This document shows, in pieces, positions 124 through 64,000 of a stretch of DNA of 64,000 nt. Numbering within the stretch: position 1 is the stretch's first letter; the number at the start of each line of letters is the position of its first letter. The notes below the pieces were generated by a model. The model ran no database searches and had not been told where the DNA came from. It was given only the letters and a program-made list of their open reading frames with translations. Location: the IMG/VR virus record IMGVR_UViG_2861079508_000001, one strand, 5' to 3'. This DNA comes from a virus. Lineage: Duplodnaviria > Heunggongvirae > Uroviricota > Caudoviricetes. Made by a program: the position numbers and the translations under genes.

Positions 124-3100
124 TTACAGAAGGCCAATTCTTACTCGTAGGACGTTGTTATCGTCATAAACGTCAATCCGCTGACCATTTATGACCAGTC
201 GCCCATTACCCCCGCTATTACCGTTGATCTCAAGCGTTCCATTTTTGCCGAACCGCCATCCAGATCTACCGCTAACAAAATTGGTAGATTGCAGATCGCC
301 TACTTTTGCATTGGTGATTGTGCCATCCTTGATATACGCACCATTCATATAGGCGATACTGTTTTCGATAACAAATGGCGTGGTGATCTTCCCGTTAACA
401 GAGTTGACCAAACCAAACCTGTCAGCCTGCACCAAAAACTGAGAAAGGCCAGTGGTGTCGATACCAAGCGCAATACCAGCAACATACTTCTGCCCTCCGC
501 TCGTTGAAGTTTCCATTTTCAACGTCCACGCGGTTGACACTTTTTTGTTGGTATCAGCAATAGCTGTTGCCTGCTGTTGAATTGTCGCGGTATTTCCATC
601 CACCTCTGCTTTCAGAGTATCGATTCGCCCACTCAGAGCATTATCTGCCTGCGTTCTCGCTGTCGTTTCAGTTGTTACCGCCGCGGAAATGTTGGCTGCC
701 GTTTGAGACTCTAAGTTTGTGATTTGAGTCGCCAATGCAGCATCTTGCTCTGTACGCGTTTTCGTTTCGGTTGCTACAGCCGCTTTAATATCCTCTTTGT
801 ATTGAGAGGTCAGCTTGGTGATCTGAGACGACAACGCCGAGTCAGCATCAGTTCGAGCCTGCGTTTCAACTGCAACGGCCGCACTAATATCTTTCGCTGT
901 CTGTGCTTTTAAACTTGAAACCTCTTTTGTTAAAGCGGTATCACCATCAGCACGAGCCGTTGTTTCTCTGGCAAGAGATGCCTCGAGATCATTAGCTTTT
1001 GCTGTAAGAGACGAAATCTGAGTGGACAATGCACTATCGGCATCAGTCCTTGCCTTTGTCTCTACAGCAACCGCTGCGGCAATATCAGTTCCGGTTTGTG
1101 CTCGCAGGCTGTTAATTTCTCGTGAGAGCGCCTGGTCAGCACTTGCTCTGGCCTCCTGCTCCTGAGTGATGGCAGCGGATATATCACCGTCAACCTTTGA
1201 CTGAAGCTGGTTTATTTGTTTGGCTAACGCAGAGTCCCCGCTTGCTCGGGCCTCCTGCTCACTACGTATTGCAGCAGAAATATCATCATCAACCTTTGCC
1301 TGAAGTTGGGTGATCTGGCTTGCCAGAGCCGAATCTTCCGTTGCTCGGGCTTCTTGCTCTTCCTTAATAGCTGCGACGATATCGTTGCTTACTTTCGACT
1401 CAAGCTGAGTGATCTGTGTCGTCAGAGCTTCATCGGCAGATGTGCGAGCCTCCTGCTCTGTACTAATCGCCGCGCTGATATCTCCTTCAAACTTAGATTG
1501 CAGCTGAGTGACACGCTTTGCCAACGCTTCATCGCCATCGGCACGAGCGGTGGACTCTTCCAGAATACTGGCCTTAATGTCTTCGCCAATTTCTACGCGA
1601 ATTTCCTCAACCTTCGTGGCCATTGCAGACATATCATCAGCAAAGGTTTTCTGTGTTGTTGCGATCTTCGCGTTATTGACCATCTGCTTGTGCTGGTCTT
1701 CATCTTGACGAAGAGCTAGGTCAATATTTGTTTTGGCTAACGCCTCAATGTTCGTAGTCAGTTCTGCACTGGCACGATCGACCTCTGCAACCGTCTTTTT
1801 CATTTCTTCAACGGCAGCGGAGCTTTCCTCTACCGTTGACTGCAACACTTCCAGTTGTTTAGCGTTTGCAGCATCGCCTTCAACACGAGCCTCGCTTTCC
1901 TTAGCAATAAGAGCCGCCGCTTCATCTCTTGCAGCCTTTATTGCCTCGACTGTATTAGCGAGAGCTTTATCGTGTTCAGATACGGTGTTTTCGATTTCAA
2001 CAATTGCAGCATCAGTAGCATCAATTTTTTCAAACGCTTCATTGACCTTGTCGATCGTTGCCGAAACCTCACCTTTAAGCTCGGTTTGTGCGTTCTCCAA
2101 AGCATCGCTACGCTCGTTGAATTTTATTTCAAAACCCGCGAGGTTATCGCTGAACTGCTTATCTAATTCAGCTATATCTTCCTTAACGTCGTTTACCGAC
2201 CCCTCCAAAGATTCGACGCTCTGGTTGATATGCTCATTTAACTCGTCAACTGCTTCTTGAGAGGCTTTGCTGTTGATGTCCTCAAGCAGAGCCTGACCAA
2301 GCTCGGAAGATGTAATTTTGCCAGCCAGGAACGACAGTACATCGCGAGTTGTCGCCTCTGTACCCAAGTTTGAGTTCGGAGGGCTTAACATACCTCGCTT
2401 GTTCGATGCTCGAACCCAGTAATACCACGTTTCGCTATCCCCAAGACCAGCATGTGTAAAGGTGGTGCTTGCAGACTCTGCGATCAGTTTCGCCGTATCC
2501 AGATTGTTGGTCTGGGATGCGTAAACATTAATGTGATCAAGGTCTACCGAATCTGGATTAACCCAATTCAGTATCACATTACGATAGTCTCCAACGGCCG
2601 TTAATGACGTTGGTGCATCCGGCGGTGTCATTGTGCCCAGCACCTGATAAACGGTACTGATAATTTCTGTTTTTTTACCGTTGAATGAAACCGCATACAG
2701 TTGGAAGTCGTAGCGTCCATTCTCCGCGACATTAACGATTTCGTATTGTTCTTCGGTTACACGCGCCGATTGCCAGTTCGATACATTGTTTTCATCAGAA
2801 CGTCGCCAACTGATCCAATACTCTGGAGATTTCCCTTCCCATGTTGCAGTCAGTTTTACTGACAGGTTGCCCGGGCTTGAGAGGTAAGTCCCTTCAGTGA
2901 TTTGCAAATTAGACGGCTTGGAGTAAGTCGGGTCCAATACCGTCGTATTCTGCGGGATAAGCGTTGCACCATTGTCGATCGCCTCATATTTAGACGGATT
3001 GTTTTCAACAGCGGTGATGTCAAAGCTACCCGACGTTTCCCCCTGAGCGATGTTAACGATGCGAACGCGCATAGGTTCGAGATCTGGTTCTGTAATTGTC

Positions 3101-4842
3101 CAGACACCGTTCAAAACAGGCGTTTCCGCTGACGACAGAGCTTTTGAAAACGTAACCTTTGTTATGTTTTCGCCAGTTTCAAGAACATCGCGCTCAACGA
3201 TTTTGCCTTCCTGATTCAATATCCGAATAAAGCTGCCGCTTTTAGCTAACGACACAGGCGCATCGAGAGTGATGCTGTTTTTGGTAAACTCCACAATTCG
3301 ACCGGAGTTACGTTTACCTGCACGATATTTGTTCTGAATCAGAACGGTTTCACCGGGCATCAGAAATGAGGCGTCTAAGCCGGCAGTAAATGTAATTACA
3401 TCCGACTCCATTCTGGCGGTATACAAAAGCCACAAACCAACTCGGTGAGCCTGGCCTCGGCTTGTACATCCAAATGCTACGACTTCTGTTTTACGCTCAC
3501 CATAACGGCGCATTGCGTCCTGATCTTCAACGTACTCGATGTTTTGCTTATAACCGTCCTCCTTGTTGTTGTAGGTTACGAGCGCAACGGATGGGCGATC
3601 TTTACGCGCAGAACCTTTATAGGTAAACAGTCCATCTTTGACGTTGGAGTTGGTAAACATCATTACTGGATCTGATGGGCTATCCTGCATGATGTTAACC
3701 ATGCCACCAGCCCAAAACACCATGCCGCGGAATGCACCGGCAATATCCTGAATTAATCGGTATGCGTCTTGTCGACTGGTGATCTGCGTATTGATTGCAA
3801 AGCGTTTCTCTTTACCCCCAAAGCCATCATCGACCTCTTCGTCACAATATCGACCAATCTGGTAGAGCTGGCCGAGGTCAATCATGGATTCCGACACAAA
3901 TTGCCCAAGACCATACCGAGTATTGGTAAGCAAATCGTAGAGAATCCACGCAGGGTTTGAAGAAGACAACAGCTTAAAAGTACCGTCCCATACGCCGACA
4001 TAAGTATTGGTGTATTCGTTGTCTCGGATTTTGATACCGCGCACCAAATACGAACGGGAAGGCATTGTGCTACCAAACTGCTCTGAATTGACCTTCAAGC
4101 CAACAAGAGCAGAGTTAGGGTAGTTCATTGGCGTGTCGACAATCTCACCTATGGAATCAACCCATGTGTCGTTGTAGAGGTACTGGCTACTGTTATCATC
4201 TGTAAGACGAATCACCCTAACCTTGTATGCACGACCAGGCTTAGGTAGTTTCAGCTCATAGCTACGGTAATACACGCCGGTTTTCTTTGCCGTTAGCGTG
4301 ATATCAACGCTTTTCTCACCTTCTGCCACTACATCAGAAAATGTTGCGTCTCCGTTGGCGATCTGGAATTTGTACTTCACCGTAGTGCCATTTGTATCGC
4401 CAGAGCTTTTATCAACGCTACGTAAAGAGGGGAATTTCATGATGACACGAACGCGATCAGCTTCATCGTTATCGATTGAAACCGTAACGTCGTGTGTTTT
4501 TTTAAGCTGAATATTTACGGACTTAGGCGTTTCGACAAAATCAAAACCAGCCATTGGCGTCTGGTCTTGTGAGCCGTCACGAAAATCCCATGTAATACCG
4601 CTGAAGTTGGAAGAGCCATCTTCATTCAAGATCGGTAAATCGTCGATGAAGATCGACTTTGCGCCATTTACCAGGCCACCGATAACCCCCTCGCCAAGAA
4701 GGTCGAGGATGGCTGCCATAGCACGAGAATTGACAGTATCATCAGCTTCAACCGGGGTACGGCTGGAGCTTTTACTTTTCTTGCCACCAGCACCGGCAAT
4801 AAGAAGCGGTAATTTTTTCTTCTTGAACTGTTCCATGTCCAA
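124..4842 (-). CDS. central tail fibre / host specificity protein (lambda gpJ-like), 1572 aa, with tandem coiled-coil repeats
   Basis: Size and position at the distal end of the tail module after I/K/L/M-like genes; about 14 tandem ~25-aa repeats (DISAAI..EQEAR..ALA.QI.QLQSKV). Confidence 0.8.
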   Translation of the reverse strand: MDMEQFKKKKLPLLIAGAGGKKSKSSSRTPVEADDTVNSRAMAAILDLLGEGVIGGLVNGAKSIFIDDLPILNEDGSSNFSGITWDFRDGSQDQTPMAGFDFVETPKSVNIQLKKTHDVTVSIDNDEADRVRVIMKFPSLRSVDKSSGDTNGTTVKYKFQIANGDATFSDVVAEGEKSVDITLTAKKTGVYYRSYELKLPKPGRAYKVRVIRLTDDNSSQYLYNDTWVDSIGEIVDTPMNYPNSALVGLKVNSEQFGSTMPSRSYLVRGIKIRDNEYTNTYVGVWDGTFKLLSSSNPAWILYDLLTNTRYGLGQFVSESMIDLGQLYQIGRYCDEEVDDGFGGKEKRFAINTQITSRQDAYRLIQDIAGAFRGMVFWAGGMVNIMQDSPSDPVMMFTNSNVKDGLFTYKGSARKDRPSVALVTYNNKEDGYKQNIEYVEDQDAMRRYGERKTEVVAFGCTSRGQAHRVGLWLLYTARMESDVITFTAGLDASFLMPGETVLIQNKYRAGKRNSGRIVEFTKNSITLDAPVSLAKSGSFIRILNQEGKIVERDVLETGENITKVTFSKALSSAETPVLNGVWTITEPDLEPMRVRIVNIAQGETSGSFDITAVENNPSKYEAIDNGATLIPQNTTVLDPTYSKPSNLQITEGTYLSSPGNLSVKLTATWEGKSPEYWISWRRSDENNVSNWQSARVTEEQYEIVNVAENGRYDFQLYAVSFNGKKTEIISTVYQVLGTMTPPDAPTSLTAVGDYRNVILNWVNPDSVDLDHINVYASQTNNLDTAKLIAESASTTFTHAGLGDSETWYYWVRASNKRGMLSPPNSNLGTEATTRDVLSFLAGKITSSELGQALLEDINSKASQEAVDELNEHINQSVESLEGSVNDVKEDIAELDKQFSDNLAGFEIKFNERSDALENAQTELKGEVSATIDKVNEAFEKIDATDAAIVEIENTVSEHDKALANTVEAIKAARDEAAALIAKESEARVEGDAANAKQLEVLQSTVEESSAAVEEMKKTVAEVDRASAELTTNIEALAKTNIDLALRQDEDQHKQMVNNAKIATTQKTFADDMSAMATKVEEIRVEIGEDIKASILEESTARADGDEALAKRVTQLQSKFEGDISAAISTEQEARTSADEALTTQITQLESKVSNDIVAAIKEEQEARATEDSALASQITQLQAKVDDDISAAIRSEQEARASGDSALAKQINQLQSKVDGDISAAITQEQEARASADQALSREINSLRAQTGTDIAAAVAVETKARTDADSALSTQISSLTAKANDLEASLARETTARADGDTALTKEVSSLKAQTAKDISAAVAVETQARTDADSALSSQITKLTSQYKEDIKAAVATETKTRTEQDAALATQITNLESQTAANISAAVTTETTARTQADNALSGRIDTLKAEVDGNTATIQQQATAIADTNKKVSTAWTLKMETSTSGGQKYVAGIALGIDTTGLSQFLVQADRFGLVNSVNGKITTPFVIENSIAYMNGAYIKDGTITNAKVGDLQSTNFVSGRSGWRFGKNGTLEINGNSGGNGRLVINGQRIDVYDDNNVLRVRIGLL
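590..1700. repeat. tandem ~75-bp in-frame repeats inside the tail fibre gene
   Basis: Periodic nucleotide and amino-acid repeat visible in the ORF translation and the DNA. Confidence 0.7.
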
Positions 4843-7380: not shown

Positions 7381-10300
7381 TTAGTTACGTTGAGTGTTTG
7401 GGTTGAGAGATCCGCCAGGGCGTTTCTCTTGAGCGATAGTCTCAAGCGCGATTGCTTTCATCCGTTGAGCGGCATTGTTCCATATGCTTTCTGTATCGCC
7501 GGATTCAGTTGTGCTACCGTCACTATGGACGTTGATCTCAATTGATACCGGAGAAAGAACATTTCCTCCTCCACTCATACCATCGGTACTGAGCGTTACA
7601 GGGATTGTTCGACCATCAGGCAATGGAACATACGCCTCATTCATATCGCCTTCCCCAAACAACGCCAATTGAGGTGAGTTGGCGATACCGCCTTTCTGGT
7701 ATGCCCGGAGCGGGATCACGCCGTCTTTTCCGAATATGCCACCATTTGCAAACTTCGGAATTGCAGGAATACCATTCGTGCCATCGGCAGCAGAACTGGT
7801 CAGATTGTTGAACCCGGAAGTTGAGCCAGAAGAACCGGACATCAATCCATCGAATCCACCACCAGCCCATACTGAAACCAAACCAGATGCAACTGTCGCG
7901 CCGAAATTCAACCACTTATTACCAGAGCCGGAAGCATTAGCTCCAAGCATTGCAAACGCGGCAGACAGAGCGCCGGTAACAGAGCTGAGGTTCTGCATCG
8001 AGAAGATGGAGTCCTTCACTGCTTTTGTCTCAGCATCTTTGGCTTCGGTGCTATCAAATAGCCCCGATACCCAGCTACCAATCGCATTTGTTGCTGTGCC
8101 AATTGCGCTGGTGGTCTGCTGTGTTGTTTGCCCCAATCCAGTTACCGAACTGGACGTCTCCTTCGTGGCTTCTCCTACCGACTTGTCGCCATTAACAGTG
8201 TTGCCCATTCGTACACCTTGATTGGCAACGGCAGAAGCAACTCCAGTGAGCAAATTGCCACTCTGTGAACTACCAGCTGCGGTGGTTCCCATCCCCAACA
8301 TGTTCATTAGAGGCAGCGTGATTTGCGACTTCACGACCATATTGGTGATATCTTTCAAAATGGACTGAGATAGGCTGGAGAAGCTCATCTTCCCGTTAAT
8401 AACGAAATCAGTCAGGACATCAGTTAAGCCACTAAACAAATCAGTCCAGGTGCTTTCGATCTGCTCTGCCAAGTTTTCGTATTCCAGTGCCAACTTCTGC
8501 GTCGCAGTCCCCGTCTCTTTAATAAGCGCGGTATTGCCAGCAGCAATCAGTTGATTGATTTTCTTTGTATAAAGCGCCACAACTTTAGGATCAGACGCCT
8601 TATCACGAAGTTCTATCAACGCTTTGAGATTGCGGTTGTAGGTGTCTTCGAAATCGGCAACTTTCTCTTCGCGAGACGGCGTATAGCCAGCACTAATAAT
8701 GGAATCCGCCTCCGGTGCCCAAGTGGAGATCATCTGCTCAACATTGCGGCGATTAAACATCTCACGATATTCAGGTGTCGCATTTTTGAGGTCTTCAAGA
8801 CGTTTTTTCGCCTTGTCGATCATCTCTTGAGTGATGAACTCGTTAGGAACCGCATTAGCCAAATCTGTCAGCGATTTCGTTGTATCGCGAAGAGACTGAT
8901 CAAACGATACCGTAGCCTTAGAGCTTTCACCCATTTGCCCCATAAGCTGATCGGCTTTGTCCAGAGCCTTCTGGTATCCGGCTGCCAGTTTCTGTTGCGC
9001 TGCCTGTTCCTTCTTGGCCGCACGCTGCGAGGCGTTAGCTGATCGTTGGGCTGCTTTCTCGGCAGCTGCTGCATCCTGTTCACGAGCTTTAGTTAGTGCA
9101 GCAATGGCTGCGGCACGCTCTTCATCGCTCATTTTCTCCAGAGAGCTGGCGCTGGATGCTTTCTGCAAATTAAGCTGCGTCTTGAGTTGTTTAGGCCCAA
9201 TAATCGGCTTACCTTCGAAGTCCATCATCGGAGTGCCGTCAGGCAAAGTACGCTGATAAGTCGCAGAATTCATCTGGTTTCGCATATATTGCGCCAACGC
9301 CTTCTGAGCAGCTTTATCAGTTGTACCTAACCCAAGAACAGTCCCCTGGTTTGACATTACGCCCTTACCAGTTTTGGCCGCGTTATCTCTCTCGAACTCT
9401 GCCTGAGTAAGTTCCTGAGCAACGGCTTCCAAATGCTCCTGATAACCACGAATACTGCCTTGCAGTTTCTGGATTTGCTCGGTATTGCCATCCTTTTTGG
9501 CTTTTTCAAGCTGATCATTAAGAGTCGCGATTTGCTTCTCGGTCGCATTCTTACGAGAAGAAAGTGAATCAACCAGTTTTTGCGCAGGCTCCAGATAGCT
9601 TTTGTTTACCGTTTCACGTAACGGTGCCAATAGCTTGTTCTTTTCGTCATCTGAAAGTGAACCGTCATCATTGATTTTCTGGATCTTATCCAGAGCCTCC
9701 TGCCGGGCTTTCACGAATGTTGCCGCGAAAATCTGGTTTTCCGCTCGAATTTTCTCAATCTGAGATTCGGCAGCCTCTTTAGCCAAACGCTTTGCTACAG
9801 CGCCGTCACCAAGAGCTATCGTGCCGGTTATCTTTTGATACTCTTCCTGATTTTTTTTCAGGCGTGCTTCGATGTCAGCCTTCGACTCTTTGTGAGTAAT
9901 AACACCGGCAGAGTTAGATACGTAATTAACACCCTCACCAGTTTTTAATGCTCGTTGATCAGCAAGAATCTGCTTTTCGAGCTTTTCTGCGCGGTCGGCC
10001 ATTTGTGCACGTTTGGCCGCCGTCATCGCCTCTGGTATTTTCCTAATCTCGTCAACGACCTTTGAAGTTTCGCTGCGGAGCATGGTCATGTACGTGATTA
10101 GGCCAGCAACAGCTACAGTGGCAACTGTAAATGCTGCCCCTATAGGGTTTGCTGCAATGAACGCCGTTAATCCAGCAAAAGCGCCTTTAAGCCCCGTAAT
10201 CGCCCCACGGATGGCGAAAATAAGAGAGGGGATCGGAGCCAGCCCCATACGTGCCGCACGATTGAATCGGGTTACTGCTGTAGCGCCGAGGTTAAATGGA

Positions 10301-11119
10301 GTCTGTATGGCGGTCGCCATCGTGGCAAAGGTGCTAACCATCTGGCTGCCTGCGCCAACTACCCCCATGATCCCTGCTCGCATCAGTTTGAACGCAACCA
10401 TCGCGGCCACGACCTTACCGAGATTAATTACCAGCTCTTGGTTCTTTGCTAACCATTGAGCAAGCTGACGCAACCCATCAATTGCCGTCGTTAACCCCGA
10501 GCCTAAAGAATTGGCAAACGAAATCCCTTCGGCGCTATTCATGATTGAAGCCAGTTCTTTCATCCCCTTCGATAGAGAATCCAGATATCCGGCCTGACCA
10601 ACCCGATCAGCAAATAACGTGAATGACGTCTGAAGTTGCGCCAGCGCACCTGTGTAGGTTTGCATCATGTCTTTCGCTGCGTTCTCATTCTCCGCACGCA
10701 GACCAACAAACATCAGAGACAACGCCTGTTTTGCCTCAACCGTACCGCTGGCAACGGCTTTAGTCAGTTCCCCCATAGTGATGCCTGCGGCGTCTGCCAT
10801 TGCCTGCATCGCGTTAGGAACGGCTTCACCTAATTGCTGACGTAGCTCTTCCATTGACACAACGCCCTTACCGGACATCTGCTGAACGGCCACAGCCGCA
10901 CGTTTCAACAGCTCACTATCACCACCAAAACGAGCAACGGAGTCCACCAGCGCCTTCAGAGAACCATCGGTTGGATCTAAGCCAGCAGAACGAAACTTCA
11001 CGAAGGAATCTGTTAACGCCTGCATCGCGAACGGCGCATTTTGCGCCATGTCTACGATGTACTTCATATCATCAGCGGCAGCCTGGCCAGGGTTGGACTT
11101 CTCCTTATTCAACCCTCGA
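7381..11119 (-). pseudogene. tape measure protein, C-terminal ~1245 codons, 5' part severed by IS insertion
   Basis: Long Ala/Gln/Lys-rich helical ORF ending with Gly-rich C-terminal region; ORF start abuts the IS left end; continues in the N-terminal fragment at 12430-13286. Confidence 0.8.
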
Positions 11120-11173
11120 TGAACCGCCCCGGGAATCCTGGAGACTAAACTCCCTGAGAAAGAGGTAAACAGG

Positions 11174-11500
11174 ATGACTAAAAATACTCGTTTTTCCCCC
11201 GAAGTCCGTCAGAGGGCGATTCGTATGGTTCTGGAAAGTCAGGGCGAATATGACTCACAGTGGGCGGCAATTTGTTCCATTGCCCCAAAGATTGGCTGTA
11301 CACCGGAGACTCTGCGTGTCTGGGTACGCCAGCATGAGCGGGATACCGGAGGCGGTGATGGCGGGCTCACCACCGCTGAACGTCAGCGTCTGAAAGAGCT
11401 GGAACGTGAAAATCGTGAACTGCGCCGCAGTAACGATATCCTTCGCCAGGCTTCCGCTTATTTTGCGAAGGCGGAGTTCGACCGCCTCTGGAAAAAATGA
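11174..11500 (+). CDS. IS3-family transposase OrfA (HTH)
   Basis: 108 aa protein [26 protein letters not shown]... recognised as IS629-type OrfA. Confidence 0.9.
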
Positions 11501-12387
11501 TGCCACTGCTGGATAAGCTGCGTGAGCAGTACGGGGTCGGACCGCTATGCAGCGAACTGCATATTGCCCCGTCAACGTATTACCACTGTCAGCAACAGCG
11601 ACATCATCCGGATAAACGCAGTGCCCGTGCGCAGCGCGATGACTGGCTGAAGAAAGAGATACAGCGCGTATACGATGAAAATCATCAGGTGTACGGTGTG
11701 CGTAAAGTCTGGCGTCAGTTGTTACGGGAAGGTATCAGAGTGGCCAGATGCACTGTGGCACGTCTCATGGCGGTTATGGGACTTGCCGGTGTTCTCCGGG
11801 GTAAAAAGGTCCGTACGACCATCAGCCGGAAAGCCGTTGCCGCAGGCGACCGCGTAAACCGTCAGTTCGTGGCAGAACGACCTGACCAGCTGTGGGTGGC
11901 TGATTTTACTTACGTCAGCACATGGCGGGGCTTCGTCTATGTGGCGTTCATCATTGATGTGTTTGCCGGATACATCGTGGGGTGGCGGGTCTCATCGTCT
12001 ATGGAAACGACATTCGTGCTGGATGCTCTGGAGCAGGCGTTATGGGCCCGTCAACCGTCCGGCACAGTCCATCACAGTGATAAAGGTTCTCAGTATGTAT
12101 CGCTGGCCTACACACAGCGGCTTAAGGAAGCCGGATTACTGGCATCAACAGGAAGTACTGGTGACTCGTATGACAACGCGATGGCGGAGAGCATCAATGG
12201 CCTTTACAAAGCGGAGGTAATACACCGTAAGAGCTGGAAAAACCGGACAGAAGTGGAGCTGGCCACACTCACGTGGGTGGACTGGTATAACAATCGACGA
12301 TTGCTGGAAAGGCTGGGCCATATCCCACCGGCAGAAGCAGAAAAAGCTTATTATGCTTCCATCGGAAACGATGATCTGGCAGCCTGA
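11497..12387 (+). CDS. IS3-family transposase OrfB (DDE integrase domain)
   Basis: 296 aa, DDE-type catalytic domain, overlaps orfA stop. Confidence 0.9.
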
Positions 12388-12429
12388 GTTCACAGATAAA
12401 ACACTCTCCAGGAAACCCGGGGCGGTTCA

Positions 12430-13286
12430 CGAAGCATCACCCGCATACGTTCCATTTCGGCCGCAGCTTCAACAATAGGCTTCTGCCACCCAAACATGAT
12501 GTCAGTAACCGTTCTGGCTGCATCTCCGATCTCGCCAAGCAGGAAAATGTTGCCACGAAGGCCAGAGAACATACCTCCTTCGTTACTTTTACCGCTATGG
12601 CCAGAAGCGCCGCTACGCCGCCCGCTACCACCATCGCCACTTCCAGATGTACGAACGCGTACCGGCTTGCTAATCAGTTGCTGACGTCCGATAACTTCGT
12701 CCATCTGCTCACGAACCTTTTTCAGTCCCTCGGCAGCCTGACTCGTTGTGACACCCCAATTACTGAGTCGCTTCGTCGTGGTATTAAGGCGCGTATTCAT
12801 GCCACTCACGGACGCAGAGGCTTCTTTGACCTCCGTACCAAAGCGGCTTGCGCTTTTGCTTGCATAGGTCGCCCAATCAGAGAAATCATTTAGCTCTGAT
12901 TGCACTTTACGTAATGACGCGGTGAGTTTATCTACTGAAGAAGTTGTCGTATCGACGCGCTCAATCAGGGCTTTAAGACCAGAATTGAGGCTGGTGATGT
13001 TGCCACGCATTTTACGCGTAGCATCTGAAGCAAGCTCAAAACCGGCAGCTACATCCTGTAGTTTATCTGCTGTAGAATCGAGCTTGCTTTCCAGAACGCC
13101 AATGATACGGGCGACCGAACCCAAAGAGCGTTCAAAGGTTTGGATTTTTTGAGCAGGCTTTGTTACCTGCTCACCAAATCGAGTAAGCAGTTTCCCCGCA
13201 CGATCGATTGACGCTGTAAACTGTTTGTCTTCCAGCGACAGGATAAACTCTACGTTTTGTGACATTCCCTTGTCATCCTCTGCCAA
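12430..13286 (-). pseudogene. tape measure protein, N-terminal ~285 codons, truncated by IS insertion
   Basis: ORF reads through into the IS right end and terminates there; frame is consistent with the C-terminal fragment once the IS and one CGA copy are removed. Confidence 0.75.
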
Positions 13287-13542
13287 ATATTTGCATCAGT
13301 TGCTCTTTGGCGTCAGGGTCTGCCTTATCCTGGCTTGGATCGTAGACTTTATCTGTTACGACTGGTCTTCCAATCCTGAGTTGCAAACCCTCCATGAACG
13401 CCTTCACAGCCTCGCCATCCGCCTGGGACGCACGAGCGACTTGTAAGTTGCGGACATCCTCTTCCGCACGCAGACGGTCTATATTGCGACTGAGCATCCA
13501 GAACATCGTGAGAGGAACGTTCAGTAGCTCTAATGGCGACAC
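13273..13542 (-). CDS. tail assembly chaperone extension (gpT-like, probably expressed by frameshift from the upstream chaperone)
   Basis: Small ORF between the G-like chaperone and the tape measure start, overlapping the latter; classic G/GT arrangement. Confidence 0.45.
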   Translation of the reverse strand: MSPLELLNVPLTMFWMLSRNIDRLRAEEDVRNLQVARASQADGEAVKAFMEGLQLRIGRPVVTDKVYDPSQDKADPDAKEQLMQIFGRG

Positions 13543-13622: not shown

Positions 13623-13940
13623 TTACTTTGCCCCTTCGCCAGCCGCTTTTTCGTTTTCTTCATCAATCACTTCCATAGCGAAGGTGAAGATCTGCTGGAG
13701 TTGCGGAACAGTCAGTTTTTCAAGAACTTCATCAGGCACTGAAGGGATAACCTTACGAACCAGATCTGCATAAGCTGTCACTTGCTCAACAGGAGACATG
13801 TTCATGAGATCTTTGCCTTCCATCTGCTTGATGGAAACGAACAAACCTACCGTCATTTCAACGATGGGATATTCCTGACCGCCAAATTTGATGCTTTTCT
13901 TCGGAGGCAGAATGGAATCGAGATCGAGTAATTTGGTCAT
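13623..13940 (-). CDS. tail assembly chaperone (gpG-like)
   Basis: 105 aa acidic protein directly downstream of the major tail gene. Confidence 0.55.
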   Translation of the reverse strand: MTKLLDLDSILPPKKSIKFGGQEYPIVEMTVGLFVSIKQMEGKDLMNMSPVEQVTAYADLVRKVIPSVPDEVLEKLTVPQLQQIFTFAMEVIDEENEKAAGEGAK

Positions 13941-17401: not shown

Positions 17402-18322
17402 TTATTCCTGTGCGGCAGTAACTTCTACAGTTGCTGTCGCTTTGTGGCTACCATCTTGGGTAGTAACCTCGATTGTGGCAGTACCAGCCGCAACACCAGT
17501 TACAACACCGGTTTCGCTGTCAACCGTTGCAAACTCGGTATTTTTGGATTCCCAAGTAACGGTTTTATTTGTGGCTCCTGCCGGCTCGACATTTGCTGTC
17601 AGCTGAACAGTTTTGTTTGCCTCAACGGTTGTGCTATTTGGGTCGATTTCGACGCCGGTAACAGCCACAACAGGCGCAGTTACTTCCACCGTTGCAGTTG
17701 CCTTTTTGCTGCCATCTTGGGAAACGATCTCAATCGTCGCAGTGCCAACTTCTACACCAGTAACGTTCCCGCTCTGGTCTACCGTTGCCTTATCTTCATT
17801 TTTGGAAGACCAGGTAACAGCCTTATTCGTCGCATTTGACGGCTGAACATTCGCTTTCAGACTGACTGATTTCCCTTTCTCAACAGACGTTGATTCTGGC
17901 GTTACCGTTACGGATTGAACGGCTACCGGATTTACGGTGACTTCCACTGAAGCGGAAAGCTGGGTTTCCTGATCAGTTGCAGTAATTTTTACTTTGCCTG
18001 GTGCTACGCCAGTTACTAATCCAGTGCCGTTAACGGTTGCAATTTGGTCATTGGCTGACTTCCAGGTGAATGAACTGGCACTCTTACCCATACTAATACC
18101 TGCACTAAGTTGAACAGTTTTCCCAACCAAAACTGACGGTGAAGCCGGGGTTATGTTTACGGATTGGGAGAGGGGAACCGCCTGCAAACAAGCAGATAGC
18201 TGACTTTGTTGCCGCTCGGTTAAAGGTTCATCGGAGATAGAATTGGTAAATCCGGCACGGCACATATGCCCCGTAAAATCCGAAAATGCCTCTTCCGTAA
18301 TCTTCATCTTTTGTTCTGGCAT
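17402..18322 (-). CDS. Ig-like (Big_2) repeat protein, candidate head decoration protein
   Basis: Three tandem Ig-like repeats (ATVDQ.G.VTGV..G.A.I); located right after the major capsid gene. Confidence 0.55.
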   Translation of the reverse strand: MPEQKMKITEEAFSDFTGHMCRAGFTNSISDEPLTERQQSQLSACLQAVPLSQSVNITPASPSVLVGKTVQLSAGISMGKSASSFTWKSANDQIATVNGTGLVTGVAPGKVKITATDQETQLSASVEVTVNPVAVQSVTVTPESTSVEKGKSVSLKANVQPSNATNKAVTWSSKNEDKATVDQSGNVTGVEVGTATIEIVSQDGSKKATATVEVTAPVVAVTGVEIDPNSTTVEANKTVQLTANVEPAGATNKTVTWESKNTEFATVDSETGVVTGVAAGTATIEVTTQDGSHKATATVEVTAAQE

Positions 18323-18340
18323 TTCTCGCTCCTACAAAAA

Positions 18341-18361
18341 GGGTGGGCGTATAGCCCACCC
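18341..18361 (-). terminator. intrinsic terminator after major capsid gene
   Basis: Hairpin GGGTGGGCGTATAGCCCACCC flanked by A-run and T-run. Confidence 0.6.
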
Positions 18362-18395
18362 TTTAACATAGATAACTACTTATCTACTACACTGA

Positions 18396-19271
18396 TTAAA
18401 TTTTTACATTGGTCAGTGCAGCGATAGCCTTATCGTGCTTATTCGCCAGAGAGCAGTACCACTTCACACGGGTACGTACTGCGTCTTTGTTCTGTACAGT
18501 ACCAATGTTTTCAACAACGATACCTGCGTTATCGCCGCCATACAGACCAGTAACGCCGTTCTCTTCTGACAGATGCAAGCAGTAGATGCTTGCTTTGCCA
18601 GAATCAGTCGGGATGAAGTCGTTGATGATGAACGGAACACCGTTATGACACAGCATCGGACGACCGAAGTTCTCCATCATGATTTCAGACGGACCTACGT
18701 TTACTGTACGCAGCAGCGCACGGTAAGCACGAAGGTGCTCTGAACGCATCATGATGCAGTCAGCACCAAGATCTTTCACCGCATCGACCAGTTCGTCGAA
18801 CATAGAGAAAGTCATAGATGCACCGGCGATATCGATCTTCTGATCTGCGTGCATCAGGCGTGGAATGCCGTCAAACGCTTTGTTGTTGGTGCTGGAGTCA
18901 CCCAAAATCAGATTGCGACGGAACGCACGAGCCAGACCTTTAACTTTCTGACGAACCTGAATAGCCAACTGGTTATTGGTGTCGGCCATAGTGGTTGCCA
19001 GGAATTTATCAACGTCTACGTCACCAGCCAGAATACGCAGTTTCGCAACGCATTCTTCGAAGGTTGCTGCACCTTCCGGGATGGTGTCGTTAACGTCGAT
19101 GAAGGTAGCCTCACTCAGCGTTTTTTCACGGTTGTACAGATATGCCTTTGAAGTAATTTTCATAAAAGGCAGGATGGCAAACAGGTCATCGCGATCGATG
19201 ATGGTTTCAATCACGCCCTGTTCAAGTTCGTTGTTAGACAGCTTTTCAGCTTCTTCACGCAGTAATGGCAT
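18396..19271 (-). CDS. major capsid protein (HK97-fold)
   Basis: 291 aa, position after scaffold gene, followed by strong terminator. Confidence 0.7.
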   Translation of the reverse strand: MPLLREEAEKLSNNELEQGVIETIIDRDDLFAILPFMKITSKAYLYNREKTLSEATFIDVNDTIPEGAATFEECVAKLRILAGDVDVDKFLATTMADTNNQLAIQVRQKVKGLARAFRRNLILGDSSTNNKAFDGIPRLMHADQKIDIAGASMTFSMFDELVDAVKDLGADCIMMRSEHLRAYRALLRTVNVGPSEIMMENFGRPMLCHNGVPFIINDFIPTDSGKASIYCLHLSEENGVTGLYGGDNAGIVVENIGTVQNKDAVRTRVKWYCSLANKHDKAIAALTNVKI

Positions 19272-19296
19272 CTATCAATTCCCTTTGATTTAGATG

Positions 19297-20184
19297 TTAC
19301 TTAAGTCCAATTTTCCCCAGACCGGAGGCCAACTTATCCATAGTCGACTTGTTCTTCGGTTGGGATATTGTGTAGGTCGATTTGGAATGTGAGCCTACAC
19401 CCTGCTTGGCTTCGCTACGCATCAATGCGTCAGCTTCCGGATCTGCCCGCACAATGCGTTCAATCGCGGATTCAAACGGCAACGGCTTACCTTCACCGTC
19501 AACCAGAACAGCTCGTTCTTTATGACCTGCCGGTTTGTCATAACCCACTACGCTACCGTCTTCACCCACTTCAAAATGAGAACCGTAGATCACGCGGGCT
19601 TTTGCCGGAGTCATCAGAACTTTGTCACGTAGGAAGAGAGAGTTACTGAAGGAAGCGCCCACGGTCATCTCGACTAATTGAGATTTCAGTGATGCGTTTT
19701 CACTTTCCAGTGCTGCATAACGTTCGTCACGCTGTGCCAGCTCTGCCTGGTGTGCTTCGATCATCTGTTTTTTAACAGCATCGAACTCACCACGACGCTC
19801 CAGTTCAGCTTGCTCCGCCTCACGACGTGCGTTTTCTGCGGCCTGTTCAGCTTCTAAAAGCTGGCGAGCACGCGCCGGGTCGATTTCACCGTACTGAGCA
19901 AGCTGATCGGCCAATGTGCGCTCTTTCTCTTTGCGCTTCATGTTCTCTTTCAGCAGTTCAGCACCAGCTTTCTTGGTTTTGCGAAGTTCGGCCAGTAACT
20001 CTTCATGAGTCATGCCAGCGTATTCGTCATCACCCTTCGGCTGCTCTTTTTGTTCACCCTGCTTGTCAGGATCTTGTGTACTCTGCTCATTATCAGCAGC
20101 TACACCGCCAGCGCCCCCACGCTCATGCGCTTCAGCAACATCCATCAGACCACGACGGGCCAAAAGCATTTGCCACAGTTTCAT
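19297..20184 (-). CDS. capsid scaffolding protein
   Basis: Charged helical protein rich in E/A/R/Q between portal and capsid genes. Confidence 0.6.
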   Translation of the reverse strand: MKLWQMLLARRGLMDVAEAHERGGAGGVAADNEQSTQDPDKQGEQKEQPKGDDEYAGMTHEELLAELRKTKKAGAELLKENMKRKEKERTLADQLAQYGEIDPARARQLLEAEQAAENARREAEQAELERRGEFDAVKKQMIEAHQAELAQRDERYAALESENASLKSQLVEMTVGASFSNSLFLRDKVLMTPAKARVIYGSHFEVGEDGSVVGYDKPAGHKERAVLVDGEGKPLPFESAIERIVRADPEADALMRSEAKQGVGSHSKSTYTISQPKNKSTMDKLASGLGKIGLK

Positions 20185-20205
20185 AAAAATTCCCTTTGTT
20201 ACTTA

Positions 20206-21780
20206 TCACTCGTTCTCTTGAGTAGATGAGTCCCCATTCCCTCGGGGTTGATCTTGCCCGCTTTCTTGGGCTGCACCACGATCATAAGTAAGTACTGACT
20301 TATTTTCAAGGGTATTTAGATCATTTTTTGGCGGAAAATTCAAGAGATCTTTATCAAATTCCTTTTTCATCGCCTCAGTAATGTTCGGGAAAATCTTCTC
20401 AATAAGCATTTCCATCTGGTGACGACGTACAGAGTCCGGTGCCTGAAGTAATGACAGTTTCTCGGCAACAGAAAATTCATCTGTAAGGCCACGAATATCG
20501 AAACTTTCTGGATACGCAATTAAAGAGTGGTCTTCGTCCAGATCTACCCCCATCCATTTCGCAACCAGTAGCATGATTTGGCGTTCAGCCCTTTCCAGAC
20601 GCTCTGCTTTTGTGACAAGCAAGCTATTTACACGCTGGAAGTCATACATTTTTGCGGCACCAGATGAGTTATCAATTCCCTGTGCGTTGTCCTGCTTCGT
20701 TCGCTCACCAGCGACACCAACTGAATGGTAGATTTCGTTAATCACCGTCTTAATCGTAGTGATGATCATCTGAGCTTGTTTCGGGTCTGGTGACAAATAA
20801 AACGGCTGGTTTCCACCTTCAGAATCGTAGGTGAAGACTCGCTTTGTGCCCATTTCAAGCACTTTAGTGTGGTTTTCATCACCAGGTAAAAGCGACTGTA
20901 CTGGTATAGCCAACTGGCTAAATGTCTGATCCTGAATAATGGCATCAAGGTTTGACAGATAGTTTGCAACCGCACGATCAAGATAAGCGATATCATCGAT
21001 CAACGATGGGCTGAAATACGGTGATTCACTTTCTCCAATACAATCAACAGGAAACACAGGAACTACGCTGAGATTATGCTCACCGCTATCCTCTAAAATA
21101 ACTTTTGCCTGACGGCGACCTGCTCCACCAGCGCCCTTCTTCACTTCCTCACGGAACAGATACCACTCGTTTTGTGTCCACAGACGATAACGTTGGTATT
21201 CCTGACCTGTAGAAGTAAAAGGATCTGCGTCATCACGAGCGACTTCCACAATTAACGCCCACAACATATTCCCGTCGTCGTCCCATGCCACATCCAGCAT
21301 TTGCTGAGGTGAAATCCAGTAGGCGTAGGCGCGAGCATCTTTCTTTTTCTCGTCAGCTACTGACTCAACATCACCACTCATCGTGCTATCGACAACAACC
21401 CATATGCGACCGTAAATAGACGACTGCAAATCAATAGCGGCCATAAATGAGTCAATAGAGGCATTCTGGCGAGTCGCACGTTTCCAGAAATTGCGGATCT
21501 GCTCTGGTGCCTCTTCGATATTTCTATGAATGTCTTCTTTAAAGAGATATTTGTTGATGAGGTTTACCACCTCACGAGTGTGGTTGAAGCGATAAGCACG
21601 CTCAACTCGCTCCTTAAACTCCTGATCTCCCTCTTTAAAGTAACGAAAGATATTGTCTGTAAACCAACCACGCCCGCCAGCGTAAGTGCTGGCGAGGAAG
21701 TCCCAATGTTCTTTTTTCTTTTCGTATTCCGGGTGGCGTCGCGCCACCAGATCCTTAATTTGTTTGTCGTTCAATTCCAT
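20206..21780 (-). CDS. portal protein
   Basis: 524 aa ORF between terminase large subunit and scaffold. Confidence 0.65.
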   Translation of the reverse strand: MELNDKQIKDLVARRHPEYEKKKEHWDFLASTYAGGRGWFTDNIFRYFKEGDQEFKERVERAYRFNHTREVVNLINKYLFKEDIHRNIEEAPEQIRNFWKRATRQNASIDSFMAAIDLQSSIYGRIWVVVDSTMSGDVESVADEKKKDARAYAYWISPQQMLDVAWDDDGNMLWALIVEVARDDADPFTSTGQEYQRYRLWTQNEWYLFREEVKKGAGGAGRRQAKVILEDSGEHNLSVVPVFPVDCIGESESPYFSPSLIDDIAYLDRAVANYLSNLDAIIQDQTFSQLAIPVQSLLPGDENHTKVLEMGTKRVFTYDSEGGNQPFYLSPDPKQAQMIITTIKTVINEIYHSVGVAGERTKQDNAQGIDNSSGAAKMYDFQRVNSLLVTKAERLERAERQIMLLVAKWMGVDLDEDHSLIAYPESFDIRGLTDEFSVAEKLSLLQAPDSVRRHQMEMLIEKIFPNITEAMKKEFDKDLLNFPPKNDLNTLENKSVLTYDRGAAQESGQDQPRGNGDSSTQENE

Positions 21781-23790: not shown

Positions 23791-23889
23791 GGTCTGGGCA
23801 TGTCTTATTAAGCCTGCTTCCGTATATATTTAATAAGTTACTTATTATTTATATATACAGAAGCAGGTCTTTAAATAAGCTCCCAGACC
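23791..23889. repeat. long imperfect palindrome (arms GCCTGCTTCCGTATATAT / ATATATACAGAAGCAGG), copy 1
   Basis: Inverted repeat read from sequence; near-identical arms recur at 47965-48035. Confidence 0.6.
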
Positions 23890-25058: not shown

Positions 25059-25720
25059 GAATGGACCTCATCGTGACTACCATTGTGATATTCCACCTTC
25101 ACGCGTTCTTTGTAGTGCTTGGTGATCTGCATATCCGGGCGCAGCGCGTTCTTCAGGTCTTCGTGAGTCGTCGCCACCATTACCGTCGCACCAACCTTTC
25201 GAGCGGCACGCTGGAGGTTAGACGCCACAACCTGAGCGGTTACACGGTCGAGAACAGCGCCGAACTCGTCAGCAGCCCACACTTTAGCGCCTGACTCAAT
25301 CAGTTTGGCAATCTTGAGACGATATTTCTGGCCGTCTGACATTTCAGAAGGCTTGCGAACAAACAGATATGCATCGTTCAGACCAGCCATAGATAACAAC
25401 CCAAGCGCATCACTGGTCGTTTTGCCCAACTGATCGATGACGTTAACCTCATTATCGAAGGTAAAATCATCGATGGAGGCTACAGACAGCCCTTCATCCT
25501 TCATCTGTCGTTGCAACTCGCGCAGCACAACGGATTTGCCGGAACCGGATTGGCCGGTGATGTACACCACATCGCCCTGCTTCACTTCCAGCTCCAGATT
25601 GTCGTAAAGCGTCCACTCTTTTTCGTCCAGGCCAAGCCCGAACGACTCAGCGATTTCCAACGTGCGCGTGGTTTTATTTACGCGTGTCTGAAACGATACG
25701 TTGATGATGTATTTGCTCAT
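25055..25720 (-). CDS. stand-alone ABC-type ATPase
   Basis: Walker A GQSGSGKS, signature MSDGQKYRL, Walker B VWAADEFG, H-loop TTHED. Confidence 0.65.
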   Translation of the reverse strand: MSKYIINVSFQTRVNKTTRTLEIAESFGLGLDEKEWTLYDNLELEVKQGDVVYITGQSGSGKSVVLRELQRQMKDEGLSVASIDDFTFDNEVNVIDQLGKTTSDALGLLSMAGLNDAYLFVRKPSEMSDGQKYRLKIAKLIESGAKVWAADEFGAVLDRVTAQVVASNLQRAARKVGATVMVATTHEDLKNALRPDMQITKHYKERVKVEYHNGSHDEVHS

Positions 25721-26385
25721 GCAGCCATCTCCCCGGAAGAGATCTTCTCCGCATATGCCACAAATGCGTCTACCCCGCTTTCTCCCGTCATTTCTTCCAT
25801 GTGGGCAAGCAAATCACCAACAACAATGGCAGAGCCAGCAGGGAGCGTTTTAAAGCCCAATACGTCGACAACACGTACTTCTTCCGCTGCAACTTCACGA
25901 CTGATCTCGGTGTGTTCATCCTTCTGTCGTTTAGTTTCTTCGCCAAGATCGATAACTAGCGAGTCGGTGTCCATTTCTTCTGTCATACTGCCAACGAGAA
26001 CATTCAACTCACGCTCTTCAAAGCCGAAAACCTCGATATCGTCCAGAACAAGCGACTCAAGCTCTTTCTGTAGCTTAATTGCATCGTAATCAATGCTGGC
26101 AAGTCGGTTATCTTCAAGGCGCTTCGCACGAACCTCGTCATCACTGAGATCATCGCGAACAATAACCGGTACGCGCTCAAGTCCAGCAAAAATTGCAGCC
26201 TCACGGCGGCCGTGGCCAGTAATAATTACGTCGTTCTTATCGACCGTAATTGGCTGGTCAAATCCGCGCTTTTTAATGGCTGCGGCTAGATCTCGGATCT
26301 GCTGTTCATCATGCTTTTTGGCATTCATCTCATAGGGAATAAGATCTGCCGGGTCGCGATATACGATTTCAAACTTTTTGGTCAT
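25717..26385 (-). CDS. ParB-like N-terminal domain protein 1
   Basis: ParB/Srx motif ITGHGRREAA; start at ATG with AAGGAG; stop overlaps next gene. Confidence 0.6.
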   Translation of the reverse strand: MTKKFEIVYRDPADLIPYEMNAKKHDEQQIRDLAAAIKKRGFDQPITVDKNDVIITGHGRREAAIFAGLERVPVIVRDDLSDDEVRAKRLEDNRLASIDYDAIKLQKELESLVLDDIEVFGFEERELNVLVGSMTEEMDTDSLVIDLGEETKRQKDEHTEISREVAAEEVRVVDVLGFKTLPAGSAIVVGDLLAHMEEMTGESGVDAFVAYAEKISSGEMAA

Positions 26386-27083
26386 TACATACGCTCCTTG
26401 TAGTAGTCGACCAGCCACACCAGAGCCTCACCAGCGTTCTCCATTTCATTACCGGTGTTAATAGCCTGCTCTTTGATGATGTTTTTTATGGTTTCTGCAA
26501 CACGATCTGACGCATCGAAAGTTACTTTGAAGCGCATGGTCTGATGTTCCGCACCCACACGTTCGGTTTTCTCTCGTTTGTCGGTATCGACAGGCTCATC
26601 ACTACCACGAGACAACGCCTCCAGTGCTTCAAGGTCGATTGCCGCCTCTTTTGCTAAAACCATCGAGATTTCGTCGTCATACGGGGCGATTTCAGACAGT
26701 TGATAGTCAAGTTCTGACTGAATTTCTTCAATGAAGCGTTGCAATGCGATTTGGTCGTCTTCACCGTATCGCTCGTTGTCCACCAGTGACATCTGTTTAG
26801 CTACGACATCGCTAATTTTGCCCACAGAAAGCACCGGAACCGTTGAAATTCCTTGCTCAATAGCAGCACGCCAGCGATGTTCGCCGCCGAGGATTTCAAA
26901 AAATCCATCTTCAAGTTCACGAGCCAAAATTGGCTTAAAAAAGCCCAATTTTTCGATAGAACCTTTCAGTTTTTCAAAATTCTGCGCACCAACCGAATTG
27001 GTGTTCCAGGTATTCGGGCGAAGGTTGGCAACATCAACCTGCAAAATCGTGATTTTTACATCCATTTTATTGCTACAATACAC
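26385..27083 (-). CDS. ParB-like N-terminal domain protein 2
   Basis: ParB/Srx motif LGGEHRWRAA. Confidence 0.6.
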   Translation of the reverse strand: MYCSNKMDVKITILQVDVANLRPNTWNTNSVGAQNFEKLKGSIEKLGFFKPILARELEDGFFEILGGEHRWRAAIEQGISTVPVLSVGKISDVVAKQMSLVDNERYGEDDQIALQRFIEEIQSELDYQLSEIAPYDDEISMVLAKEAAIDLEALEALSRGSDEPVDTDKREKTERVGAEHQTMRFKVTFDASDRVAETIKNIIKEQAINTGNEMENAGEALVWLVDYYKERM

Positions 27084-39710: not shown

Positions 39711-39867
39711 AGTAGGCATTACTTCTTTGTAGTGAAAAGGGGCTTGATAGTAACAAAATGGCCTTATGTCTGCCATGTGATAACAGCATTTCTCATAAAT
39801 GATTAAATGTCGTAGCTGGAGTACACTACAAGGCGACAATTGCGCAAATTAAAATAAAGGAGACGGG

Positions 39868-63879: not shown

Positions 63880-63980
63880 TATGCTGTCAGCGGTAATTGA
63901 TAGTCTGTCAGCGGTTCACCGTATGCTGCCAACTGTTTTTGGTATTCTGTCAGCGGCAAATCAAGTATGCTGTCAGCGGT
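63880..63980. repeat. four to five TGCTGTCAGCGG-like iterons at about 20-bp spacing
   Basis: Direct repeats read from sequence at the window end. Confidence 0.6.
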
Positions 63981-64000
63981 TGAATGACAAAGGTGTCCAC

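Follow-up and report, generated by a model that had tools for sequence, protein, structure and literature searches.

The elements related to SSU5 (the Salmonella phage SSU5, E. coli Cyrano/pLF82, pSLy3 and pHCM2 types) share a gene order that runs from the tail fibre gene through J, the tape measure gene, the head and terminase genes, the ParB-family genes and the nucleotide-metabolism genes to RepB. Cyrano is a plasmid present at about 5.5 copies per cell and induced by ciprofloxacin, virions with a tail of about 259 nm have been attributed to it, and the production of infectious virions has been shown for both SSU5 and Cyrano (PMC9928086). The insertion sequence IS629, known from E. coli and Shigella together with IS1203 and IS3411, has prophages and plasmids as its favoured locations (PMC3271280). 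Here we describe a locus in which the two are joined: very probably, an SSU5-like temperate phage-plasmid, kept as a plasmid in Escherichia coli, received a copy of IS629 by transposition at codon 279/280 of its tape measure gene. The tape measure region is 97.7% identical to that of Cyrano and about 81% identical to that of SSU5; the gene is intact in Cyrano and in the E. coli plasmid pSJC33-2, whereas the copy analysed here is interrupted.

The window (the whole stretch of 64,000 nucleotides that was analysed, from the IMG/VR virus record IMGVR_UViG_2861079508_000001) is collinear with positions 21715-84438 of pSJC33-2 at 99.87-99.95% identity, with the insertion sequence as the sole large difference, and by this collinearity it represents about 62.7 kb of an SSU5-like temperate phage-plasmid of about 113 kb. 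The remaining tail, head and packaging proteins match their pSJC33-2 counterparts exactly or with 1-2 residue differences, with no frameshifts, and J shows an in-frame gap of 4 aa; by these comparisons, every other structural gene within the window is intact. Plasmid functions are represented as well. Two ParB-family genes (25717..27065, minus strand) encode proteins identical to those annotated in pSJC33-2 as ParB/Srx and ParB/RepB/Spo0J, and the first 40 codons (120 nt) of a RepB-family plasmid replication initiator, cut by the window end, lie at 63881..64000 on the plus strand, with a translation identical to the N-terminal end of RepB from pSJC33-2. Complete RepB and ParA are found in pSJC33-2, which is 99.9% identical over the window. 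The combination that marks an SSU5-like element, a single replicon bearing structural genes alongside those for replication and partition, is found here, in part through pSJC33-2.

Is an insertion sequence out of place in such a genome? The preliminary description had thought so, on the grounds that the genome otherwise looked virulent, with neither integrase nor repressor, and the pSJC33-2 annotation lists none over the segment matching the window. However, a tyrosine recombinase/integrase, an adjacent HTH putative repressor and ParA are all found in pSJC33-2 and Cyrano in the part that lies outside the window, as is RepB, whose start nevertheless falls within the window along with the ParB-family genes. 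Furthermore, the region is held by 231 E. coli records, at 237 places, all of them on plasmids and none chromosomal, and Cyrano itself is an inducible temperate phage-plasmid. Judged on these relatives (231 of 231 being resident plasmids), the element would be maintained extrachromosomally. A virulent phage genome anomalously carrying an insertion sequence has almost no chance of being the right reading, and the virulent framing is refuted. On the contrary, an insertion is to be expected, because such elements persist for generations as low-copy plasmids. The appropriate label is that of a probably defective SSU5-like phage-plasmid and not of a virulent phage, with the insertion sequence as a marker of residence in the plasmid state.

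The insertion itself is a complete IS3-family element of 1310 bp, located at 11120..12429 on the plus strand, with boundaries that follow from its inverted repeats and from the empty site as reconstructed. The left terminal inverted repeat (IRL, 11120..11144, starting 5'-TG) and the reverse complement of the right one (IRR, 12405..12429, ending CA-3') match at 14 of the first 14 positions and at 23 of the first 25, the ends of the element being TGAACCGCCCCGGG... and ...CCCGGGGCGGTTCA. The element is flanked by a CGA target-site duplication, with its left copy at 11117..11119 and its right copy at 12430..12432, while the empty site of pSJC33-2 holds one CGA only, a 3-bp stretch shared by both flanks. 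On the plus strand, orfA (11174..11500, 108 aa) encodes the HTH DNA-binding part of the transposase (Pfam HTH_Tnp_1, E 1.8e-12), and orfB (11497..12387, 296 aa), read in frame -1 with respect to orfA and overlapping it by 4 nt, encodes the DDE/rve catalytic part (rve 1.8e-27, HTH_21 1.3e-18, rve_3 1e-11). An ALIL pseudoknot, the stimulator of -1 frameshifting, spans 11455..11571 on the same strand (Rfam RF01497, full model 1-117, 120.2 bits for a gathering score of 50, E 5e-32), and it encloses an A6 run (11492-11497) where the stop codon of orfA overlaps with the ATG of orfB. The pseudoknot and the A6 run together predict a programmed -1 frameshift giving an OrfAB transposase; in the copies carried by sister plasmids, RefSeq annotates a single transposase with a programmed frameshift. 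Members of the IS3 family measure about 1.2-1.55 kb, with partly overlapping orfA and orfB and a direct target duplication of 3-4 bp. The length, the overlapping 0/-1 frames, the HTH and DDE parts, the frameshift signal, the TG...CA ends and the 3-bp duplication all conform to this, and the 1310-bp IS3-family element with orfA/orfB, inverted repeats and a CGA repeat that had been proposed from the sequence holds to the base.

Its assignment to IS629, also proposed at the outset, was borne out by comparison with annotated copies. The element is 97.8% identical over 1310 bp to the copy annotated IS629 in phage BP-4795 and 97.4% identical to the copy annotated "IS3 family IS629" in the Stx2 phage Stx2_499. 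By the convention of ISfinder, isoforms share at least 95% nucleotide identity over their full length; set against these annotated copies, the element is an IS629 isoform, in the broad sense that takes in IS1203 and IS3411. It has the length, frames, ALIL pseudoknot, TG...CA ends and 3-bp duplication of IS629/IS1203/IS3411, and departs from IS629 in no structural respect, being a sequence variant 2-4% distant from the O157/Stx-phage copies. This distance falls inside the range of the IS629 sub-types, which differ by 4-5% among themselves (PMC3271280). That the element is no chance resemblance is clear from its presence elsewhere: other E. coli records contain it at full length with 100% identity (10 of 10 among the matches listed), where RefSeq gives it only the annotation "IS3 family transposase", the best match reaches at least 99% in 135 records, and at least 80% of the element is present in 4481 records. 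Many E. coli strains carry IS629 in several copies, the median being 4 places per genome.

The two open reading frames with tape measure character on either side of the insertion are one gene. Its 5' fragment (12390..13265, minus strand, with the start placed by identity to the pSJC33-2 tape measure protein WP_032328865) consists of 279 native codons, 12 codons encoded by the insertion sequence and a TGA within it; the minus-strand frame crosses into the element at 12429, reads EPPRVSWRVFYL and stops at 12392-12390. The 3' part (7381..11119, minus strand) continues from 11119 in the same frame with residues 280-1523, and lacks any evident start site. In silico deletion of 11120-12432, that is, of the insertion sequence and one CGA, yields one open frame from 13265 to 7381 on the minus strand, whose 1523-aa product shows 1 mismatch to WP_032328865. 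The preliminary description had the N-terminal fragment run into the element and stop and the C-terminal fragment resume in a compatible frame, both as found here. Its figure of about 1530 codons stands for the mechanical open reading frame, which begins at a TTG at 13286, but not for the gene, whose most likely start, following the annotated homologue, is the ATG at 13265, for a protein of 1523 aa. The comparison with related genomes that it had called for finds the gene uninterrupted, with annotated products of 1523 aa in pSJC33-2 and 1525 aa in Cyrano, and the region is likewise uninterrupted in many other sister plasmids.

A tape measure protein is encoded by a very long open reading frame that carries tape measure domains and is bordered by tail chaperone genes on one side and by minor tail genes (M, L, K, I, J) on the other. 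The reconstructed gene conforms to this in its length of 1523 aa and its domains, and the surrounding gene order agrees with the annotated Cyrano and pSJC33-2. In Pfam, the 3' part matches TMP_3 (3.8e-25, profile 24-190 of 192) and Tape_meas_lam_C (4.8e-13), and the 5' fragment has a weak match to TMP_N, below the curated cut-off. Since the TMP_3 match in the C-terminal fragment begins only at profile position 24, the insertion cuts a single TMP_3 domain. The tail of the virions attributed to Cyrano, at about 259 nm, is in keeping with the approximately 230 nm predicted from 1525 aa. Upstream of the tape measure gene lie two small intact genes on the minus strand (13623-13940 and 13273-13497), identical to WP_000163861 and WP_000952686 of pSJC33-2; they have no Pfam match, and their position suggests that they encode the tail assembly chaperones.

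Could the interruption have been produced by the assembly, with a multi-copy insertion sequence misplaced or collapsed into the tape measure gene? IS629 is a repeat, repeats are a classic cause of misassembly, and the junction is peculiar to the window sequence among the collections searched. Indeed, the exact junction is absent from the E. coli complete genomes and PLSDB and also, as an exact 34-mer across the left junction, from the GTDB species genomes, the JGI metagenomes and IMG/VR, and no record matches the 291-aa stub protein exactly. The insertion thus rests on one sequence, as neither the junction nor the stub protein was found elsewhere. However, a misjoin does not make a perfect 3-bp target duplication together with exact restoration of the frame, both flanks run on collinearly in the same replicon, and equivalent genuine insertions are known from closed sister plasmids. 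We consider an assembly artefact very improbable; the duplication and the restored frame support a genuine transposition with target-site duplication.

Some tail function might also survive if the C-terminal 1244 residues were translated from an internal start, giving a shorter but functional tail and an element still infectious. An AAGGAG stands just downstream of the insertion sequence on the coding strand, and in the sister plasmid NZ_OZ501614 the PGAP annotation calls the C-terminal fragment a complete CDS. Moreover, in-frame deletions within the tape measure gene of lambda can yield shorter tails. Against this, the first in-frame ATG lies about 33 nt from the AAGGAG, and the only other candidate is a TTG at 11112 with improper spacing. 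The fragment also lacks 279 residues, among them the start of the TMP_3 domain, and ahead of it lies some 1.3 kb of IS sequence transcribed in antisense and left untranslated, a situation that favours polarity. A simple scan of the region for promoters and terminators gave sites no more numerous than in shuffled sequence and carries no weight on polarity either way. Residual function of this kind is highly unlikely.

On the preferred reading, that of a disrupting transposition, a functional-looking IS629 would have inserted while the element was maintained in the plasmid state in an Escherichia coli cell. The tape measure product would be reduced to a 279-residue N-terminal stub with a 12-residue tail encoded by the insertion sequence, the remaining 1244 residues being left with no start site of their own, and therefore no tails of defined length would be assembled. 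The tape measure gene is essential in long-tailed phages, as for gpH of lambda, and tail loss in this copy is almost certain by that analogy. The earlier proposal that it can no longer make infectious particles is retained as a reasonable consequence of the interrupted gene. Upon induction, replication, DNA packaging and lysis might still proceed, with the release of non-infectious heads. The element would nonetheless persist, because plasmid replication and partition are independent of the tail genes. As to the roughly 50 kb of the element outside the window, the element may already have been defective before the insertion, and a second tape measure copy there is unlikely.

IS1203v/IS629 elements are capable of precise excision, with possible reactivation of the gene (bioRxiv 10.1101/2023.06.07.543989). 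Precise excision, given the transposase and the IEE protein, could in the same way restore the tape measure gene and make the knock-out reversible.

In the sister plasmids, at least 6 further independent insertions were observed, made by distinct IS629 variants (95.8-97.9% identical to the window copy), each at its own site. Two are in the tape measure gene, 247 bp (NZ_OZ501614) and 418 bp (NZ_CP117972) from the site in the window; in NZ_CP053233 both J and the small gene that immediately precedes the tape measure gene are interrupted, in CP056801 the major tail gene, and in NZ_CP025894 and its clones J, with IS100 and a deletion. A site-specific hot spot, suggested by three tape measure insertions in the same orientation within 420 bp, was rejected: J, the upstream small gene and the major tail gene were struck as well, and a shared orientation is what the search would yield in any case, as it joined same-strand pieces alone.

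Is the insertion something other than a neutral accident, in that IS629-like elements target the SSU5-like tail module, and above all its part between the major tail gene and the 5' portion of the tape measure gene, or are selected there, repeatedly turning phage-plasmids into plain plasmids? Five of the seven insertion sites (that of the window included) fall within 2.1 kb, and among the matches listed no insertion hits the head or packaging genes. Yet the clustering is inflated by one case that came from a narrower, site-centred query, the survey drew on the matches listed for each search, and insertions in the opposite orientation were invisible to it. The affected fraction of the sister plasmids is no more than about 1-2% (6 lineages in 382 PLSDB and 186 E. 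coli-genome records that span the region, the collections overlapping), a frequency compatible with rare neutral decay. Furthermore, the flanks show no shared target motif, and a selective benefit is not obvious, as a tail knock-out leaves lysis of the host in place. We regard such targeting or selection as unlikely. A fuller version, in which a regional preference or selection over the tail module, notably this stretch of about 2 kb, recurrently locks the elements into a plasmid lifestyle, reversibly in hosts with IEE, seems somewhat less likely still. If true, insertion would be a recurrent route by which SSU5-like phage-plasmids are locked into plasmid life, one that IEE hosts could undo; either way, the insertions in sister tail genes might serve as a small natural dataset on phage-plasmid decay.

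The insertion in the window is a real but ordinary event of an already known kind. Its main value lies in the annotation and interpretation of this sequence, to which it brings one more example of phage-plasmids starting to decay into plasmids, and it raises no new biological question. The closest precedent is offered by the stx2::IS1203v-type insertions of EHEC, in which the same type of insertion sequence inactivates a gene of a resident prophage, again in a manner potentially reversible by the transposase and IEE. There, however, the target is the toxin gene of an integrated lambdoid prophage, whereas here it is a structural tail gene of an extrachromosomal SSU5-like phage-plasmid, a target also in line with the recognised preference of IS629 for prophages and plasmids. 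Phage-plasmids can turn defective through loss-of-function mutations, and in the P1-like and other defective phage-plasmids an essential virion function is lost while the plasmid functions are kept (PMC12977533), as appears to be the case here. In comparison with these, the window copy would carry a single, recent and potentially reversible change, at most the first step of such a decay.

The inserted element occupies 11120-12429 (1310 bp, from sequence reading and the ORF list) and is of the IS629 type. Its terminal inverted repeats, TGAACCGCCCCGGG... and ...CCCGGGGCGGTTCA, are imperfect, matching at 14/14 and 23/25 first positions, and CGA direct repeats flank it at 11117-11119 and 12430-12432. 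Two plus-strand genes are present, orfA (11174-11500, 108 aa; Pfam HTH_Tnp_1, E 1.8e-12) and orfB (11497-12387, 296 aa; rve 1.8e-27, HTH_21 1.3e-18, and rve_3), the latter in the -1 frame relative to the former, with ATGA as their overlap. The A6 run at this frame overlap is covered by a full-length ALIL pseudoknot (11455-11571; Rfam 120 bits, gathering score 50, E 5e-32), a frameshift stimulator known from the IS3-family group to which this element belongs. The top ten matches in E. coli are all complete copies of the IS with 100% identity; the best match reaches at least 99% in 135 E. coli records, and at least 80% of the element is present in 4481. Copies annotated as IS629 (phage BP-4795, Stx2_499) are 97.4-97.8% identical to ours over their full length; the IS629 sub-types are 4-5% apart, and its isoforms include IS1203 and IS3411 (PMC3271280). 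These features and matches are not due to chance. An IS3-family match is thus present, and the coordinates, length, orfA/orfB, inverted repeats and CGA repeat of the preliminary description, made from sequence alone, were all confirmed.

The element splits the tape measure gene and most probably inactivates it, as had been proposed. On the minus strand, the N-terminal frame reads ...MERMRVMLR up to the right end of the IS, inside which it continues with EPPRVSWRVFYL until a TGA at 12392-12390; beyond the IS the same frame resumes with GLNKEKSNPGQ... and stops at 7381, so that translation confirmed both the early stop and the in-frame resumption. When 11120-12432 (the IS and one CGA) was deleted in silico, a single open frame was obtained. 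From ATG 13265 it encodes 1523 aa, with one mismatch to WP_032328865 of pSJC33-2, an E. coli plasmid with an intact tape measure gene; the mechanical ORF from TTG 13286 corresponds to the "about 1530 codons" first described. Pfam hits in the C-terminal fragment are Tape_meas_lam_C and TMP_3, the latter starting at profile position 24, and the IS therefore splits one domain of one protein and is not intergenic. Annotated intact homologues in pSJC33-2 and in the related phage-plasmid Cyrano (1525 aa) span both fragments, which are not unrelated genes, and many sister plasmids carry the region without interruption. The initial observation is confirmed in full. The exact IS junction was absent from E. 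coli complete genomes, PLSDB, GTDB genomes, JGI metagenomes and IMG/VR, and the evidence for the insertion is this one sequence. It is unlikely that misassembly produced the IS placement: a direct repeat of 3 bp together with a perfectly restored frame would not result from it, and equivalent IS insertions are known in closed sister plasmids.

Is an IS unexpected in this genome? The preliminary description had considered it odd in a virulent-looking phage. Its report of no integrase or repressor in the window is correct, and none is annotated in the matching part of pSJC33-2. The window is only about 55% of the element. pSJC33-2 carries a tyrosine recombinase/integrase with an adjacent HTH regulator (110.5-112.0 kb), a ParA-like ATPase (12.7-13.4 kb) and RepB (84.3-85.5 kb), annotated in Cyrano as Integrase, putative repressor, ParA and RepA. 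The first 120 nt of the RepB gene lie inside the window, which then ends, and two ParB-family genes are found at 25717-27065. The region is 97.7% identical to Escherichia phage Cyrano, 96-99% to "phage CMS-2020a" records and about 81% to Salmonella phage SSU5, and all 237 tail-region matches, from 231 complete E. coli genomes, fall on plasmids, with 0 on a chromosome. Cyrano has been reported at about 5.5 copies per cell with a 39-fold ciprofloxacin induction, and the tails of the siphovirus particles ascribed to it are about 259 nm long, consistent with a 1525-aa tape measure protein (PMC9928086). As the element resides mostly as a plasmid in E. coli, insertion of an E. coli IS is unsurprising, and recognition of the element as a phage-plasmid removes the oddity that had been claimed.

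The whole window is collinear with pSJC33-2 (NZ_CP080257, 113,446 bp) at 21715-84438, with 99.87-99.95% identity by local alignment, the IS being the sole large difference. We transferred the RefSeq annotation of this plasmid to the window and checked the proteins one by one: the tail, head-tail connector, capsid, portal and terminase proteins are all identical or 1-2 residues off, and this check found no frameshifts or stops in these genes. No structural gene of the window other than that for the tape measure protein is broken, an indication that the event was recent. The tail tip fibre gene J (127-4836) differs from that of pSJC33-2 by one substitution and by a gap of 12 bp (4 aa) that keeps the frame, this gap being the only other structural-gene length difference. 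Of a 99-aa hypothetical protein encoded by pSJC33-2, only residues 1-82 align to the window (about 33338-33583), suggestive of a small indel or a frameshift in this accessory gene. A 67-bp stretch between the terminase-region genes (23801-23867) has a second, 94% identical copy in the plasmid backbone outside the window (pSJC33-2 11363-11431); it is possibly a regulatory or intergenic motif that recurs. Outside the window, pSJC33-2, the nearest relative in which the tape measure gene is intact, is not pristine either (record 17588-21307 and 87.3-96 kb). Its tail fibre gene carries a pseudogene annotation, and an inserted type I restriction-modification system has a fragment of an IS3-family transposase beside it. 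Decay of the lineage may have been under way before the IS insertion seen in the window.

The window also carries two bacterial housekeeping genes, full-length metG (methionyl-tRNA synthetase; 37677-39710, minus strand) and apbC/mrp (Fe-S carrier; 39868-40968, plus strand), both identical to pSJC33-2. An IS1 remnant directly follows this stretch (37677-40968), which looks like IS-mediated cargo. A 24-kb query overlapping its start matched more than 5200 E. coli chromosomes at only 90-95% identity; we take these matches to be the chromosomal metG locus, and, if so, such identity would indicate that the stretch was captured from another, related host. A nucleotide-metabolism block (51490-58163) contains nrdA/nrdB and the thymidylate synthase gene together with dfrA51 (51490-51966), which encodes a dihydrofolate reductase resistant to trimethoprim and has reportedly been described recently as a resistance gene borne by phage-plasmids.

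In long-tailed phages the tape measure protein starts tail-tube assembly and sets the tube length (lambda gpH). As the protein is required for the tail tube, the induced element is predicted to give tailless, non-infectious heads, while plasmid maintenance would be unaffected. The 3′ part of the gene lacks a convincing start site of its own: AAGGAG adjoins the junction, but the first in-frame ATG is about 33 nt off, and upstream of this part lie 1.3 kb of IS RNA that is antisense and untranslated. A simple promoter/terminator scan of the region gave sites no more numerous than in shuffled sequence. IS3-family transposition is copy-out-paste-in via a circular intermediate (reviewed in bioRxiv 10.1101/2023.06.07.543989). 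The donor was most likely another IS copy in the same cell. The IS is complete, its target duplication is present and the reading frame is restored exactly on removal. The inactivation need not be permanent. Precise excision of IS1203v/IS629 has been shown to reactivate stx2 and a bla reporter, and is transposase-dependent and strongly boosted by the excision-enhancing protein IEE (bioRxiv 10.1101/2023.06.07.543989; see also PMC9943667, PMC9397093).

Among the matches listed by a search with the IS plus its flanks, at least six further independent IS629-like insertions were found in E. coli SSU5-like phage-plasmids, one of them with a narrower query centred on the window site. Their IS variants are 95.8-97.9% identical to ours and the insertion sites all differ. 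Two lie in the tape measure gene, 247 bp (NZ_OZ501614, GTT) and 418 bp (NZ_CP117972, TTG) from the window site. NZ_CP053233 has one in the small gene directly upstream of it (GTTA, opposite orientation) and one in J (GTA), CP056801 has one in the major tail gene (TAA), and NZ_CP025894 and its clonal relatives have one in J, flanked on one side by IS100 and a deletion. Each of the five simple insertions has its own target duplication. The window equivalents of these sites are about 3100, 3386, 12677, 12848, 13355 and 14562, so that, among the matches listed, five of the seven sites (window included) fall within 2.1 kb. The search joins same-strand matches only, so that insertions of the opposite orientation could not be seen and the orientation shared by the cases is artefactual. 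By record counts (the IS is found in 7023, the tail region in 231 and at least one of the two in 7239), about 15 of 231 E. coli plasmids have IS629-like sequence at some position. The tail-gene insertions among the matches listed affect a small fraction of the sister plasmids, about 1-2%; recurrent hits in the tail module are suggestive only. This type of IS is already well known, as is this sort of event.
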